Source: Candidatus Gottesmanbacteria bacterium
Lineage (GTDB): Bacteria > Patescibacteriota > Microgenomatia > UBA10105 > UBA927
DNA: 64,000 nucleotides
Assembly (NCBI GenBank): GCA_963790805.1
Contig: CAWBPL010000002.1
Span: 512,696 to 576,695, forward strand
Direction: 5' to 3'
Under the pieces are notes generated by a model. It was given only the letters and a program-made list of their open reading frames with translations. It made no database searches and was not told the origin of the DNA. Shown piece after piece: positions 25,453-32,092 of the stretch. The translations under genes and the position numbers were made by a program. The stretch's first letter is position 1. Every line of letters begins with the position of its first letter.

Positions 25453-26070
25453 TTACCGGAGAACCTGATTTACGGCAGTAGAAAGGTCATTGATACTTGA
25501 TAAATCCAGTTTTTTGCCGTTGAGGAAAAACGTTGGCGTCGCGTCAACGCCGAATCTGGTGCCGGCTGCTATATCATCAAGAATCCTATTGGTGAGGGTC
25601 GTATTTTTCATATCAGCGTCAAATTTTGTCATATCGAGGTTAAGTTGTTTGGCAAGATCGGTAAATTCAGTATCAGAAAATTTGTCCTGATTGGCAAAAA
25701 GAAGGTCGTACATTTCCCAGTATTTTCCCTGAACACCTGCGGCTTCGGCAGCTTGAGCCGCCTGATGGCTGAAGGGGTGTTGGTCAAGGGGAAAATTGCG
25801 ATACACATAGAGTAGATTGTCTTTATGAGCAGCTACGATTGCGTCAACGGTTGGTTTTGCGGCAAGACAGGCGGGACACTCAAAATCAGAAAATTCGACG
25901 AGATATACTTTCGCCTGAGGATTACCCTTTGTGTGCGCATCTTTGGGAATCATGTCATCTTGTGTGAGGGTGGGGGCGGGTTTGGTTAACACCAACGAAG
26001 CCAGTCCGATAACGACCGCAGTGATAACGATGATACCTAAAAACATTTTTGTTTCCCCTGTGAATTTCAT
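25453..26070 (-). CDS. DsbA-like thiol:disulfide oxidoreductase, membrane anchored
   Basis: N-terminal TM, thioredoxin fold, active site FECPAC. Confidence 0.8.
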   Translation of the reverse strand: MKFTGETKMFLGIIVITAVVIGLASLVLTKPAPTLTQDDMIPKDAHTKGNPQAKVYLVEFSDFECPACLAAKPTVDAIVAAHKDNLLYVYRNFPLDQHPFSHQAAQAAEAAGVQGKYWEMYDLLFANQDKFSDTEFTDLAKQLNLDMTKFDADMKNTTLTNRILDDIAAGTRFGVDATPTFFLNGKKLDLSSINDLSTAVNQVLR

Positions 26071-26076
26071 ACGAAT

Positions 26077-26550
26077 TTAGGAATGAGCCTCAAGTATATA
26101 ACTTTTCCACGCAAGGATACAGATGATCGTCATATTGACAGCAGACAGAGCGCACCATGTACAAATGCCCTTTATACGAAATATCTCCGTGTAGGTAAAC
26201 CAAGCCACAAAGCAGACGCCAAATGTTGCCATAGCAAGCATGCCCTTCAGGAGGTTTTTGTTCGTTGAGGTTGTGCGAAGAAACGCAAGGATCGTTAAGA
26301 TCGAATATCCCACAAGTCCGACTGCAGGAACAGGGATGCCGAATGGGTAGCTTAAGGGGCTTTTTTGAACAAGTGAGCAGCCGCCTGCGGTAAAGCAGAC
26401 AATCGACGAATGCCGTAAGAAACTTTGGAGAACATAGACTGCCATAATGATGCCGATGATAGAAAGAACGAACATGATGCGGTTAATCGTAACTATGTCA
26501 AATGCGGACGACAAACGTGTGTTCATAACGGAGGTGGTACTTAGCATCAT
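26077..26550 (-). CDS. Vitamin K epoxide reductase (VKOR) family protein
   Basis: 4-5 TM, loop cysteines (CFTAGGC), CTWC redox motif. A 6-nt gap separates it from the DsbA gene. Confidence 0.75.
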   Translation of the reverse strand: MMLSTTSVMNTRLSSAFDIVTINRIMFVLSIIGIIMAVYVLQSFLRHSSIVCFTAGGCSLVQKSPLSYPFGIPVPAVGLVGYSILTILAFLRTTSTNKNLLKGMLAMATFGVCFVAWFTYTEIFRIKGICTWCALSAVNMTIICILAWKSYILEAHS

Positions 26551-27291: not shown

Positions 27292-28107
27292 TTATCGACA
27301 ACCTACGGTGTAATTTGTAGTTCCTGAAGCAGTGCAGGATTCACAGAGGCCATATGTTGGATCGTTAACCTGCGTGCAAGAAGCTGGGCCCGCATCAATG
27401 CTTCCGCCGCATGTGTATGCTCCAGGGGTCGTTGTTGTGGGGTACGTGCAGTTAAACGCACCGCCACAGGAACCGCCTGAACAGGAACCACATGAACAGG
27501 TGGCATATTGATACGTTGTTATACCGGTACAATCGTAATCCCAGCTTCCGTCGGCTCGTGCCGTTGTGAAAAAATTCGTTTGATTCCAATGTGCATTTTT
27601 GGCTGACGCATTACCATCCGAAGGACTTGCATCGTAACAGTCAACTTGGATGGGGCTTTGGAGAGTATTCAGGCGGACATAGGTAGGTCCGGGCTTGTTT
27701 GCAGATACCGTTTCTACGTTTGAAGCCGGATATCCATCGCCGTCTGCATCAACCATCCAAACACCTGCGCCGGGTTTTAATGAAGCAGGGCTCCCTGCGC
27801 AGCCGGAGGGTAAAGCGATTGATCCTCCTGTAATGCTTATCGTTCCGGCTCCGATACTTTGACCGCAGGATAAGGTTAATGTTCCCGATTGAATGATGAG
27901 TGTTCCTGTGTTACTGGAGCCGGATCCGAAATCAACTCCGCCGTCCGATGTGCCGGCAAATGAGCAACTATTATTCGCGCCTAAATTAATCGTTTGTGTG
28001 GAGGTTGTGACGTCTGGGCAAGTGGATGATGAAGCAAACACCGGTCGCGGGGTACCAAATATAATGAATGTCAGTATGATGAAGACGATTATAGCGATAT
28101 ATTTCAT
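27292..28107 (-). CDS. Secreted Cys-rich protein (16 Cys) with DADGDGY motif
   Basis: Signal peptide ...PVFASSS. Gly/Ser/Thr-rich. C-terminal CSCGSCSGGSCGG cluster. Confidence 0.65.
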   Translation of the reverse strand: MKYIAIIVFIILTFIIFGTPRPVFASSSTCPDVTTSTQTINLGANNSCSFAGTSDGGVDFGSGSSNTGTLIIQSGTLTLSCGQSIGAGTISITGGSIALPSGCAGSPASLKPGAGVWMVDADGDGYPASNVETVSANKPGPTYVRLNTLQSPIQVDCYDASPSDGNASAKNAHWNQTNFFTTARADGSWDYDCTGITTYQYATCSCGSCSGGSCGGAFNCTYPTTTTPGAYTCGGSIDAGPASCTQVNDPTYGLCESCTASGTTNYTVGCR

Positions 28108-28109
28108 AA

Positions 28110-28736
28110 TTAATACGCGCGCAGCGTTAAGGACTGCATTTCTTTCTCTGTCGCTGTTTTGACCATGACGCTCGGGCTATAGATATACAAATGGGTATCA
28201 TTGGTTGTAATGGTTACCTCCCAGATGCTTGTTAATCCACTTTCGCTAACCTTCTGCATCGAATAGGACGCTGTTTTTTTGTCCGTTGTTAATGAGAGAT
28301 CAGCGGACAGAATTGGCGTTGTCCCGCTGGCCTCAATGGTAAAAGTCTGTTGTGTTCCGGTTGTTGGGTCAAACGGATTAATGGTAATAGAATTTATTTT
28401 CGGACCGGTGTGATCTTTTCCGTAACTGATAGTATATTTTATTTTTCCCTGTTGGAGCGGGTAGGGGGTTGGTGTTGGTGTCGGAGTCGGCGACGGTCTC
28501 GGAGGAGAAGTGGGAATTGCAGCGATAGGTGGGTTTCTTTGTTTGTATGACATAAATTGTAAATAGGCGAATAATCCAAGGTTTGCAACAAGAAAAAATA
28601 CCGCCAATGCCGGAATAACGTAATAAAAAAGTATTGAGCGTTTCGGTTTATTGTTTTCAACAACCGGAGAAGGAGCTGCGTTTGCAGATTGTACCGAAAC
28701 GGGTTTCGGAGTTTTACTTGCTTCTTCTTTAGCCAT
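28110..28736 (-). CDS. Membrane-anchored protein with PT linker and beta-rich ectodomain
   Basis: One TM, then PPRPSPTPTPTPTP. It ends 2 nt before the start of the Cys-rich gene. Confidence 0.55.
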   Translation of the reverse strand: MAKEEASKTPKPVSVQSANAAPSPVVENNKPKRSILFYYVIPALAVFFLVANLGLFAYLQFMSYKQRNPPIAAIPTSPPRPSPTPTPTPTPYPLQQGKIKYTISYGKDHTGPKINSITINPFDPTTGTQQTFTIEASGTTPILSADLSLTTDKKTASYSMQKVSESGLTSIWEVTITTNDTHLYIYSPSVMVKTATEKEMQSLTLRAY

Positions 28737-29698: not shown

Positions 29699-30163
29699 AT
29701 GAAAAATACACTTCTTGTTATCGTTCTTCTTGTTGTATTGGTTGGAGTGTATCTCGGACGGCATACGCTGAAGACAATGCTCATGGGATCGAGTCCTAGT
29801 CCCACACCGACTGCGGCGATGCAACCCGCAACCGGTGCTCCTGAAGCTGCATCGGGGGCATCCGGCGTTATGACAACAAGCGGTACAACAAAAGAATTTG
29901 CCGTGTCCGGCACCGAGTTTGCTTTTTCACCGAGCACTCTCACCGTCGCCAAGGGCGATACGGTCAAAGTAACGTTTACCAATAACGGTGCCTATCCGCA
30001 CAATTTTACGATTACGGAGTTCAATGTTGCCAGTAAAACGGTTTCACCCGGCCAATCGGATACCGTGACGTTTACAGCTGATAAAGCCGGAAGTTTTAAG
30101 TATTTCTGCAGTGTCCCCGGTCATGAAGACAAGGGGATGGTAGGAACGCTGACGGTACAGTAA
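29699..30163 (+). CDS. Membrane-anchored type-1 copper cupredoxin (plastocyanin/amicyanin-like)
   Basis: Ligand pattern H (YPHNF) ... C-x2-P-x-H (FCSVPGH) ... M (GMVG). N-terminal TM. Confidence 0.85.
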   Translation: MKNTLLVIVLLVVLVGVYLGRHTLKTMLMGSSPSPTPTAAMQPATGAPEAASGASGVMTTSGTTKEFAVSGTEFAFSPSTLTVAKGDTVKVTFTNNGAYPHNFTITEFNVASKTVSPGQSDTVTFTADKAGSFKYFCSVPGHEDKGMVGTLTVQ

Positions 30164-30185: not shown

Positions 30186-30212
30186 AAAAGCCCCGCACAC
30201 GCGGGGCTTTTT
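30186..30212. terminator. Bidirectional intrinsic terminator
   Basis: AAAA-GCCCCGC-ACAC-GCGGGGC-TTTTT between the convergent cupredoxin and csoR-like genes. Confidence 0.8.
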
Positions 30213-30236: not shown

Positions 30237-30638
30237 TTATTTTTTATTACATGTGCAATCTTTGCAATTGCAGGAGCACGGTTTCTTTTCGTCTTTAGTG
30301 CATGTGCACGTACAGTTATCGCATGTGCATGTCCCGCAGCAGCATTTGTGATCGGATGTATTGGTTTGATTCATAACTTCTATCACCTCCTTTATAACCT
30401 CATTCGCATTGCCTTTTTTAATTTCAGAAGCTACGCAGGTTTTCAGATGATTTTCCATGATGACTTCGTCGGCGCGCTTCAGTGCGGATTGGACTGCCTG
30501 AGATTGATTGATAACGTCGATACAATACTCGCCGTCTTCAACCATCTTGATGACACGCGTAAGATGCCCTTGGGCAATCCGTAGGCGGTGAAGAATTGCG
30601 TGATTTACCGATGTATCTCTTGGAATTCCTTTTGGCAT
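30237..30638 (-). CDS. csoR: CsoR/RcnR-family metal-sensing repressor fused to a Cys-rich metallothionein-like tail
   Basis: Cu(I) ligand pattern C (YCIDV) ... H-x3-C (NHLKTC). The last 37 aa contain 13 Cys (HKCCCGTCTCDNCTCTCT...PCSCNCKDCTC). Confidence 0.85.
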   Translation of the reverse strand: MPKGIPRDTSVNHAILHRLRIAQGHLTRVIKMVEDGEYCIDVINQSQAVQSALKRADEVIMENHLKTCVASEIKKGNANEVIKEVIEVMNQTNTSDHKCCCGTCTCDNCTCTCTKDEKKPCSCNCKDCTCNKK

Positions 30639-30674
30639 AGTTCGGCTTCCTCCACTTGCTCACTACGAGCGTTT

Positions 30675-30691
30675 ATCCCCCTATAGGGGAT
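30675..30691. promoter_or_regulatory. Candidate CsoR operator ATCCCC-N5-GGGGAT
   Basis: The G/C-tract inverted repeat abuts the csoR -10 box. It resembles known CsoR operators (ATACCCC..GGGGTAT type, recalled from memory). Confidence 0.6.
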
Positions 30692-30720
30692 ATAATATCT
30701 TCGGATTCGTTTTTTGTCAA
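30692..30720 (-). promoter_or_regulatory. Sigma-70-type promoter of csoR-like gene
   Basis: Minus strand TTGACA-17 nt-TATTAT. SD GGAGGAAG precedes the ATG. Confidence 0.6.
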
Positions 30721-30825
30721 GGACATCTCCGTTCAGGATGATTTAAGAGTTTACTATATGCATTTGCCTCTTGCCGGCGTGTTATACTGATGATACAGTA
30801 GTAAATCCTTGAAGGAGGAAATAGT

Positions 30826-31149
30826 ATGGCAGATGTGACGATAACCGATGCGAATTTCGACAGTGAAGTATTAAAAAACGATAAACCGGTATTGGTGGAT
30901 TTTTGGGCTGTGTGGTGCGGTCCGTGTCAAATGCAGGGTCCCATTGTTGAAGACGTCGCCAAAGAACTGACTGGGAAGGCAAAAATCGGTAAACTCAACG
31001 TTGATGAAAATCCAAATACCGCGCAAAAATTCGGCATTATGAGTATCCCGACCATCATGATTTTCAAGGGCGGGACGGTTGTGAAACAATTCATCGGCGT
31101 ACAGTCAAAAGAAACGCTCCTTGGGGAATTAAATAAGTTAATCAATTAA
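30826..31149 (+). CDS. trxA: Thioredoxin
   Basis: WCGPC active site, 107 aa. Confidence 0.95.
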   Translation: MADVTITDANFDSEVLKNDKPVLVDFWAVWCGPCQMQGPIVEDVAKELTGKAKIGKLNVDENPNTAQKFGIMSIPTIMIFKGGTVVKQFIGVQSKETLLGELNKLIN

Positions 31150-31153
31150 ACTC

Positions 31154-32092
31154 ATGACGTACGATGTCATCATTCTTGGCTCCGGGCCAGCTGGTTATAC
31201 AGCGGCACTCTATACTTCACGGGCATTTTTGAAAACGCTCATCCTTACCGGCATTCAGGAGGGCGGACAGCTTACAACCACGACCGAGGTGGAAAATTAT
31301 CCCGGATTTCCTAAAGGTATTTTAGGGCCTCAACTTATGATGGACATGAAAGCACAGGTTGTGCGTTTTGGGACAGAAGTCGTGCAAGAATCGGTGACGA
31401 AGGTTGAGAAAAAGGGAAAGACGTTTACTGTCGTTGCCGGTAGTGCAACATATGAAGGAAAAACCGTGATTGTTGCAACAGGAGCGTCAGCCATGTATTT
31501 GGGGCTTCCATCGGAGAAAAAATTCGCTGGCAAAGGAGTTTCGGCGTGTGCGACGTGCGACGGATTTTTCTTTCGCGGGAAAGAAGTCGTCGTCGTGGGC
31601 GGAGGCGATACTGCGATGGAAGAGGCGACGTTTCTCACAACATTTGCGACAAAAGTCACCATCATTCACCGGCGAGAAGGATTTCGGGCGAGTTCCATCA
31701 TGCTTGAGCGGGCCCGCAAAAATCCGAAGATTTCTTTTTTATTAAATAAAGTGATTGAAGAAATAGTAGGGGATACGGCTGTCAACGGGGTCAAACTGAA
31801 AGATACAAAGACGGGTAAAGTCGAAACATACCCGACACGGGGGGTGTTTTTGGCGATCGGACATACGCCGAACACGGAATTTCTAAAAACATTACTTCCA
31901 CTTGGTTCCAAGGGGTATGTTCAGGTCAATCGCCCAAAAACAGCACTTGAGCCGCAAACAGCGACGAGTGTGCTGGGTTTGTTTGCCGCCGGCGACTGCG
32001 TCGACCCCCGATACCGTCAGGCGGTGGTCGCCGCCGGCATGGGATGTCAGGCCGCTATGGACGCACAGAAATATTTGGAAGAACAAGGCTAA
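31154..32092 (+). CDS. trxB: Thioredoxin-disulfide reductase
   Basis: GSGPAGYTAA FAD site, CATCDG redox centre, GGGDTAMEEA NADPH site. Confidence 0.95.
   Translation: MTYDVIILGSGPAGYTAALYTSRAFLKTLILTGIQEGGQLTTTTEVENYPGFPKGILGPQLMMDMKAQVVRFGTEVVQESVTKVEKKGKTFTVVAGSATYEGKTVIVATGASAMYLGLPSEKKFAGKGVSACATCDGFFFRGKEVVVVGGGDTAMEEATFLTTFATKVTIIHRREGFRASSIMLERARKNPKISFLLNKVIEEIVGDTAVNGVKLKDTKTGKVETYPTRGVFLAIGHTPNTEFLKTLLPLGSKGYVQVNRPKTALEPQTATSVLGLFAAGDCVDPRYRQAVVAAGMGCQAAMDAQKYLEEQG

Follow-up and report, generated by a model that had tools for sequence, protein, structure and literature searches.

A 64,000-nucleotide stretch of Candidatus Gottesmanbacteria DNA (contig CAWBPL010000002.1; hereafter the 64-kb window, from whose first letter positions are counted) carries csoR-MT, a gene for a CsoR-family repressor with a Cys-rich, metallothionein-like tail at its C-terminus. 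We propose that the protein is an autoregulated, Cu(I)-derepressed repressor whose tail forms metal-thiolate clusters, such that the regulator serves as a copper-inducible buffer, and we give this reading a probability of roughly 0.55. As far as can be judged from sequence, Cu(I) is most likely the tail metal, cluster formation most likely its mode of binding, and buffering most likely its main role. The features of the regulator itself are as follows.

30237 to 30638, minus strand: csoR-MT coding sequence, 133 amino acids plus stop, an open reading frame (ORF) with an ATG start
30369 to 30599, minus strand: CsoR core, residues 14–90, a three-helix protomer by Pfam match and AlphaFold2 (AF2) model
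30522 to 30524, minus strand: codon of Cys39, position X of the W-X-Y-Z Cu(I) site, with second-shell Tyr38 just before it; aligns to Y35-C36 of Mycobacterium tuberculosis CsoR (MtCsoR) and is invariant in alignment A3
30435 to 30449, minus strand: His64-x3-Cys68, positions Y and Z of the Cu(I) site; aligns to MtCsoR H61/C65 and is invariant in alignment A3
30240 to 30350, minus strand: metallothionein-like tail, residues 97–133, with 13 Cys, predicted to be coil and with conserved Cys codons

Judged by family, ligand set and second shell, the core of csoR-MT is a canonical Cu(I)-CsoR. Taking a significant profile match over the core of ~80–90 residues as the test of family membership, residues 14–90 match PF02583 with E=7.4e-23 and 81.2 bits, against a gathering score of 22.8. 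The AF2 model, which is of the monomer, is an all-alpha three-helix protomer (helices 11–34, 39–74 and 78–93; predicted local distance difference test, pLDDT, 80–92). The closest solved structures are copper CsoRs, namely MtCsoR (2HH7, E=4e-18), Geobacillus GtCsoR (4M1P) and Thermus TtCsoR (3AAI). CsoRs in the PDB span E=4e-18 to 4e-14, and the copper CsoRs score above InrS, a nickel sensor, and CstR, a persulfide sensor. Cu(I)-sensing CsoRs are defined by x-C-H-C ligands together with a second-shell Tyr and Glu (2024 metallostasis review; superfamily network study). In csoR-MT, Y38, C39, H64, C68 and E84 align to MtCsoR Y35, C36, H61, C65 and E81, and none of the five varies across 53 relatives (alignment A3). 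The ligands lie in the motifs YCIDV (C39) and NHLKTC (H64 and C68), with Tyr38 directly before X and Glu84 16 residues after Z. Position W presumably falls on R7, a non-ligand, by the X-minus-32 spacing of RcnR/InrS alone; H13 and H17 are nearby. The original prediction of a CsoR-type repressor with a C...H-x3-C set of Cu(I) ligands is therefore borne out. RicR is the top NCBIfam match of the core, at a score far under the RicR cut-off, and database labels for the tailed proteins say only FrmR/CsoR-family regulator. The CopA/CopZ neighbourhood that is typical of Cu(I) CsoRs is absent from the window, which has neither a DKTGT or HMA motif nor a tblastn match; such a neighbourhood supports a class assignment rather than strictly defining it.

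Beyond the core, residues 97–133 (HKCCCGTCTCDNCTCTCTKDEKKPCSCNCKDCTCNKK) contain 13 Cys in 37 residues arranged as CxC repeats, as the original prediction had counted. The first block is CCC-x2-C-x-C-x2-C-x-C-x-C (8 Cys), and it is followed by a Lys/Asp linker and a second block, C-x-C-x-C-x2-C-x-C (5 Cys). Counted from its first Cys, the tail is 37% Cys, with seven CxC motifs and no aromatic residue. The metal-free tail is net cationic, with 6 K/R (six Lys) versus 4 D/E. This metallothionein-like composition (~30% Cys, CxC/CxxC motifs, no aromatics) holds in all tailed homologues, which have 33–46% Cys in their tails. Residues 94–133 are a low-confidence coil in the AF2 model (pLDDT ~50), as expected of a metal-free metallothionein-like segment. 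In the window, the tail is the sole Cys-dense segment in a real ORF; the three other matches sit in non-coding frames.

Several observations indicate that the tail is real and under selection. All 13 tail Cys columns are invariant in seven genomic loci, with codons that alternate freely between TGC and TGT. In the same loci, the proportion of nonsynonymous differences (pN) in the tail is 0.03–0.2, as low as in the core, and that of synonymous differences (pS) is saturated at 0.8–1.0. No tandem repeat was detected in the tail DNA, and a terminator directly follows the stop codon. The tail might nonetheless have been an artefact or neutral low-complexity sequence, and the original prediction would have lost its footing if all close homologues lacked it. 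Instead, it is carried by ~19 protein clusters and nine further genomic loci, in many independent assemblies. Because there are homologous tails with invariant Cys, codon turnover, low pN and no tandem repeat, a frameshift, read-through or assembly chimera is ruled out, and we consider the artefactual or neutral explanation extremely improbable.

The tail matches no Pfam family at E-values up to 10, hence no described metallothionein family, and has no significant match among PDB sequences. In every example found, the Cys-rich segment is the C-terminal tail of a regulator and never a small independent polypeptide; a homology search with the tail alone yielded no candidate with enough shared 5-residue words and missed even the known tailed proteins, so it does not count as a negative. 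A metagenome scan with a back-translated DNA pattern for CCCx2CxCx2CxCxC gave 146 ORFs among the matches listed, none with a CsoR core; the matches were (TGY)n microsatellites. An Fe-S cluster site was also considered and judged unlikely, since in our own judgement known Fe-S motifs have a spacing different from these CxC repeats, and Pfam gave no match.

How widespread is the tail? A search of 5.8 billion proteins for CsoR homologues with Cys-rich C-terminal extensions, as the original prediction had suggested, recovered 13 tailed clusters (P0001–P0013; 63–89% identical), counted at 90% identity. A second search with the most divergent tailed type added six (P0270–P0275), for a total of ~19. 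Beyond the window, the tail is encoded at nine genomic loci (L001–L007, L042 and L164), and an independent assembly, L163, has an identical csoR-MT protein and the same gene order as the window. Tail length runs from 24 to 48 residues, with 10 to 16 Cys. Common to the tails is the opening block CC(C)-x2-C-x-C-x2-C-x-C-x-C; the linker behind it varies, with a 7-residue insertion in L007, and leads into one or more further CxC blocks. The lineage that carries these csoR family members is Candidatus Gottesmanbacteria and related Microgenomates, within the candidate phyla radiation (CPR)/Patescibacteria. Most relatives are tail-less proteins of ~92 amino acids that start MPKGIPR, and the tail is present in only 3 of 37 recovered species-representative genomes. 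An exhaustive profile search of 1.84 billion representatives placed the tailed group in one 50%-identity cluster, and none of the other 149 best CsoR-family representatives had a comparable tail. A single origin of the tail is plausible from these comparisons: the nearest neighbours of each tailed protein are also tailed, and the first block is shared. In neighbour-joining trees of the 90-residue core, monophyly of all tailed proteins was recovered in 0–1 of 200 bootstraps, and sub-groups in 155/200 and 185/200.

Four protein entries (P0008, P0009, P0027 and P0289) have N-terminal extensions ahead of MPKGIPR, which are probably mis-called start codons; the N-terminal extension of L003 runs over the promoter and operator described below. 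The loci L006, L008 and L011, and other metagenome-assembled genomes (MAGs), are labelled “uncultured Gammaproteobacteria bacterium”. Their genes and synteny fit Gottesmanbacteria/Microgenomates, and the label looks like a placeholder or mislabel.

The regulatory signals of csoR-MT can be read directly around the gene.

30692 to 30720, minus strand: sigma-70-type promoter, TTGACA (30720–30715), 17 nt, TATTAT (30697–30692); 11/12 match, the best match in the region
30674 to 30692, no strand assigned: candidate CsoR operator TATCCCC-N5-GGGGATA, with 7-nt arms that are 100% complementary
30648 to 30653, minus strand: Shine-Dalgarno sequence GGAGGA, 9 nt before the ATG, read from sequence
30186 to 30211, minus strand: intrinsic terminator 3ʹ of csoR-MT, between convergent genes, with an 11-bp stem (7 G-C pairs) followed by a T-run

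Both the minus-strand promoter TTGACA-17-TATTAT and the G/C-tract operator directly after it, ATCCCC-N5-GGGGAT, had been predicted, and both held up; the repeat proved perfect over 7-nt arms. The inverted repeat shares one base with the −10 hexamer of csoR-MT, and the 64-kb window has a single exact ATCCCC-N5-GGGGAT. Tolerating two mismatches gives three operator-like sites in the window versus 2.04 expected. This is chance level, so the other two matches are meaningless. The operator itself goes beyond chance because 37 of 41 clade loci, tailed or not, have it in this place immediately behind the −10, as does L164, with divergent flanking spacer sequences. The arrangement in the clade is TTGACA, 17 nt, TATTAT or a close variant, then TATCCCC-N3-5-GGGGGATA; TTGACA-17-TATTAT itself is present in L001, L003, L005, L006 and L164. 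Known CsoR sites are G/C-tract inverted repeats, that of MtCsoR being GTAGCCCACCCC-N4-GGGGTGGGATAC. Together, the conserved footprint is strong evidence that TATCCCC-N5-GGGGATA is the CsoR operator of this clade. Since the operator begins on the final −10 base and spans the expected start site, repression by occlusion, and hence autoregulation of csoR, is implied. The operator and promoter are not special to tailed proteins; tail-less Microgenomates CsoRs have them too. The Shine-Dalgarno sequence and the terminator, which may work in both directions, bracket csoR-MT as a monocistronic, self-contained unit of ~500 bp including promoter and operator.

In the mechanism that we propose, csoR-MT would repress its own strong promoter through TATCCCC-N5-GGGGATA, which starts at the last −10 base and covers the transcription start. 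Binding of Cu(I) at the inter-subunit Cys39/His64ʹ/Cys68ʹ site, with Tyr38 and Glu84 in the second shell, would free the protein from DNA, as in characterised CsoRs. Cu(I)-sensing CsoRs as a class bind Cu(I) with an affinity of ~1e18 per M or tighter, and members of the CsoR/RcnR superfamily assemble into dimer-of-dimers tetramers. The 37-residue tail would be unstructured without metal and would fold around metal-thiolate clusters, most likely of Cu(I), in blocks of 8 and 5 Cys. Copper would derepress the gene and yield more repressor, and with it more tail, as copper rises, so that the regulator would double as a copper-inducible metallothionein. Once the tails had lowered available Cu(I), repression would resume. 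By analogy with the Cu:Cys ratios of known Cu-metallothioneins, the capacity of the tail would be very roughly 7–10 Cu(I) per chain, and total tail capacity would rise with copper because the gene is copper-derepressed. There is a precedent in M. tuberculosis, where RicR, a CsoR paralogue, controls the metallothionein gene mymT.

In the window lineage, csoR-MT would be the only gene clearly under the operator, with the CopZ-like and DsbD_2-cupredoxin genes of its relatives being lost from the locus. We consider, tentatively and with less confidence than the buffer itself, that csoR-MT is a one-gene copper homeostat in this lineage, acting as sensor and sole local effector: the tails would sequester copper and repression would return. 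If so, a few dozen tetramers, each with tens of Cu(I), would be a meaningful buffer in ultra-small CPR cells, and the gene would represent a minimal alternative to the usual arrangement of a sensor with CopZ/CopA.

Several points weigh against copper buffering. The tailed proteins are not recovered as a single clade on the 90-residue core. With no homology of the tail to Pfam metallothionein families or PDB chains, “metallothionein-like” describes composition and motif only. The tailed loci L001, L003, L005, L007 and L042 still have genes for CopZ and the DsbD_2-cupredoxin fusion alongside, and hence the tail did not simply replace those genes. For the window lineage, copA or copZ may lie elsewhere in the genome, outside the 64-kb window. 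Finally, buffering is limited by the low copy number usual for regulators. The objection carries less weight in ultra-small CPR cells, in which, by our own estimate from cell volumes, one molecule corresponds to ~0.1 μM.

The main rival to copper buffering gives the tail a second sensing or allosteric role, through a cooperative polynuclear Cu(I)-thiolate cluster like those of CopY, Ace1/Mac1, Drosophila MTF-1 and the CorE extension. By competing with the C-H-C site, the tail could make the response threshold sharper or move it; alternatively, it could help to eject the protein from DNA as a Lys-rich cationic tail turns into an anionic cluster. The positive charge of the metal-free tail fits this idea, since release of CsoR from DNA has been attributed to altered surface electrostatics (2024 review), and Cys-rich, cluster-forming copper modules are known in CorE and in Drosophila MTF-1 (PMC2396432). 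A further hint that the sensing region co-evolved with the tail comes from residue 44 (codon 30507–30509, minus strand), five residues after the sensor Cys, which is Asn in 18 of 20 tailed proteins and His in 122 of 141 tail-less ones; these are raw counts, uncorrected for phylogeny. The change from His to Asn may reflect a lost auxiliary ligand, or simply common ancestry. However, the canonical sensor site and its second shell are intact, such that a second sensor is unneeded, and the wide variation among tails, with 10–16 Cys and gain or loss of entire blocks, is easier to reconcile with a role in capacity than with precise allosteric switching. We regard a sensing tail as possible and clearly less probable than a buffering one.

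A different metal is less likely again. If the tail bound Zn(II) or Cd(II) rather than copper, it might be a structural Zn cluster, or might widen the response or protection to divalent thiophilic metals. Lys-rich Cys blocks with CxC motifs are typical of Zn/Cd-metallothioneins too, and metal preference is not assignable from sequence alone. A csoR-cueA system is reported to be tied to co-tolerance of Cu, Zn and Cd (PMC5057107). The sensor site of csoR-MT is, however, the trigonal Cu(I) set, and the neighbours in relatives are CopZ-like HMA and cupredoxin-domain proteins. We consider Zn(II) or Cd(II) improbable as the main ligand and continue to favour Cu(I) buffering.

How does csoR-MT compare with known systems? 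It resembles MtCsoR (2HH7) and the Geobacillus/B. subtilis-type CsoR (4M1P) in Pfam family, three-helix protomer and x-C-H-C plus Tyr/Glu signature, and it resembles known CsoRs in having a G/C-tract inverted-repeat operator over its own promoter, which implies autoregulation. Unlike them, it has a conserved 13-Cys tail, whereas the tail of MtCsoR is an actinomycete feature of ~30 residues that is poorly conserved, and it has no adjacent CopA pump or, in the window, CopZ. As in the RicR-MymT system of M. tuberculosis, a CsoR-type repressor would make a Cys-rich, copper-sequestering polypeptide copper-inducible. The difference is that RicR-MymT uses two genes, and here a single chain, expressed from one autoregulated promoter, contains both the sensor and the Cys-rich polypeptide. 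Our searches, which did not include a direct comparison with MymT, showed no resemblance in sequence between MymT and the tail.

The tail shares with vertebrate beta-domains and fungal Cu-metallothioneins a Cys content of 33–46%, CxC repeats, abundant Lys and a lack of aromatics, and with metallothioneins in general a predicted disorder without metal and modular blocks of variable number. Unlike metallothioneins, it is not free-standing, and its likeness to them is one of sequence features without homology to a Pfam metallothionein family or PDB chain. CopY (CxCx4CxC) and Ace1 are copper-sensing transcription factors with Cys clusters. Like Drosophila MTF-1 and CorE, csoR-MT is a transcription factor with a polythiolate module, the copper-binding role of which is putative here. 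In CopY, Ace1/Mac1, MTF-1 and CorE, however, sensing is done by the Cys cluster itself, and these proteins bind DNA through unrelated folds; csoR-MT also has the full CsoR site.

Other CsoR-family proteins carry different C-terminal thiol elements. P0179 is a CsoR fused to a CopZ-like HMA domain; P0143, P0160, P0175, P0196, P0200 and P0243 are among those with other thiol appendages; and several CsoR-family representatives have unrelated short tails ending CC, CCH or CCS. Additional thiols at the C-terminus may be a theme that recurs among CsoRs and has gone undescribed. The HMA fusion P0179 and the CC/CCH-ending P0143, P0196 and P0175 are like csoR-MT in joining a CsoR core to an extra thiol element. 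They differ in having 2–3 Cys or a folded CopZ-like domain, not 10–16 Cys, and their additions are unrelated in sequence to the tail.

Neither full-text literature searches nor the 2024 metallostasis review or the CsoR superfamily network paper yielded any account of a CsoR with a Cys-rich tail. The only tail mentioned for the CsoR family in the review and the network paper is the poorly conserved actinomycete one, and the network study had excluded proteins with long extensions ahead of its analysis. We rate the combination of sensor and tail as undescribed in the literature searched, and not as a new principle ahead of measured metal binding or a measured effect on sensing. It is of clear interest to metalloregulation specialists. 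Bacterial metal sensors and buffers are normally separate proteins, and the way in which buffering sets the threshold of a sensor is central to the study of metal homeostasis. Here nature provides a fusion together with tail-less sisters on the same operator, a ready comparison in which core and DNA site stay constant and only the tail differs. The fusion is also among the few concrete leads on copper handling in genome-reduced CPR bacteria, and the compact module of ~500 bp could serve as a self-limiting copper-sequestration part.

The genes on either side of csoR-MT are those expected from the original prediction, which had placed the regulator convergent with a cupredoxin and divergent from trxA-trxB.

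29699 to 30163, plus strand: membrane-anchored cupredoxin, the convergent neighbour (PF13473, E=8e-16; PF00127, E=1e-14)
30826 to 32092, plus strand: trxA (30826–31149) and trxB (31154–32092), the divergent neighbours (PF00085, E=5e-31; PF07992, E=4.5e-49)
30780 to 30788: candidate extended −10 of trxA, TGtTATACT, read from sequence, ~90 nt from the operator

Candidate type-1 copper ligands of the cupredoxin, identified by eye, are the H in PHNF and the C-x4-H-x4-M in CSVPGHEDKGM. A cupredoxin is also in the convergent position in L006 and L163. Direct control by CsoR of the cupredoxin or of other genes in the window was considered and rejected, as no second operator was found there.

Comparison with related loci suggests a history for this neighbourhood. 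At ~30 of them, csoR is divergent from genes for a DsbD_2-cupredoxin fusion and a 65-residue HMA protein whose best matches are CopZ and MerP. In many relatives trxA, trxB and a flavin reductase gene trail these two genes, closely packed. CopA was seen at none of the ~30 loci with an adjacent CopZ-like HMA gene. The window and L163 lack the DsbD_2-cupredoxin and HMA genes at the locus, which puts trxA 187 bp from csoR, and the 64-kb window contains no P-type ATPase (DKTGT) motif, no HMA motif and no DsbD_2 homologue. The window cupredoxin is only 26% identical to the cupredoxin domain of the DsbD_2-cupredoxin fusion. The ancestral order is csoR divergent from DsbD_2-cupredoxin, HMA (CopZ-like), trxA and trxB, of which DsbD_2-cupredoxin and HMA have disappeared from the locus in the window lineage. 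The sister locus L006 has an unrelated co-directional gene upstream; L164 has unrelated neighbours; and in neither is trxAB adjacent. The three tailed lineages represented by the window and L163, by L006 and by L164 lack adjacent CopZ/DsbD_2 genes, whereas nearly all tail-less relatives retain them; this speaks for the buffering reading, as does the lack of P-type ATPase and HMA motifs in the window. The original prediction had also described a compact copper/thiol-redox island. The neighbours are indeed present, but the island is what remains, in reduced form, of a larger copper/thioredoxin operon and not a design built around the tail: DsbD_2-cupredoxin and HMA are missing, trxA has its own candidate −10, and the cupredoxin has no operator.

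The proximity of trxA-trxB raises one more explanation for the tail, namely that it is a sensor of thiol redox state or reactive sulfur, forming a disulfide or polysulfide that thioredoxin resets. This would explain why trxA-trxB adjoin csoR-MT in the window and sit in the divergent operon of many relatives, and the CsoR superfamily includes a persulfide sensor, CstR. However, adjacency to trxAB is equally common in tail-less relatives and is missing at the tailed loci L006 and L164, and in the window trxA seems to be served by a separate promoter at a distance from the operator. Moreover, csoR-MT has the Cu(I) signature, with His at position Y and the Tyr/Glu pair, and not the x-C-x-C of CstR. 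We rank this explanation slightly below Zn(II) or Cd(II) binding, and far below copper buffering.

The fusions of a DsbD_2 membrane domain to a cupredoxin-like domain, such as those at L001 4748–5928 (minus strand), L003 4821–6000 (minus strand) and ~30 further loci, have no NCBIfam name. By its gene content, the conserved Microgenomates operon of DsbD_2-cupredoxin, HMA, trxA, trxB and flavin reductase looks like a thioredoxin-fed, CsoR-controlled membrane copper-handling system; we found no characterised equivalent of the DsbD_2-cupredoxin/CopZ-like/trx operon. In many relatives (L012, L017, L021, L023, L025, L035 and others), AAAGTCAA is conserved directly after the operator, within the ~10 nt that separate it from the csoR ATG. 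Its reverse complement, TTGACTT, could be the −35 of a divergent DsbD_2-cupredoxin/HMA promoter. On that reading, the csoR −10 region read in reverse complement would supply the divergent −10 (TATAAT), the operator would sit within a spacer of ~19 nt, and one site could repress transcription in both directions. At several loci, the ATG of the divergent gene overlaps the csoR −35 (TTGACAT). The window is without GTCAA, which is consistent with loss of the divergent genes.

Farther from csoR-MT, at 25453–26550 (minus strand), the window encodes a VKOR homologue beside a DsbA-like thioredoxin-fold protein, which would form an extracytoplasmic disulfide-forming pair. VKOR also adjoins csoR in L003, L005 and L042. 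Two adjacent, conserved and apparently secreted proteins, at 27292–28107 and 28110–28736 (both minus strand) and also at L006 2103–3574, have no Pfam match. The C-terminal part of the protein at 27292–28107 is rich in Cys, Gly, Ser and Thr (CSCGSCSGGSCGG...).

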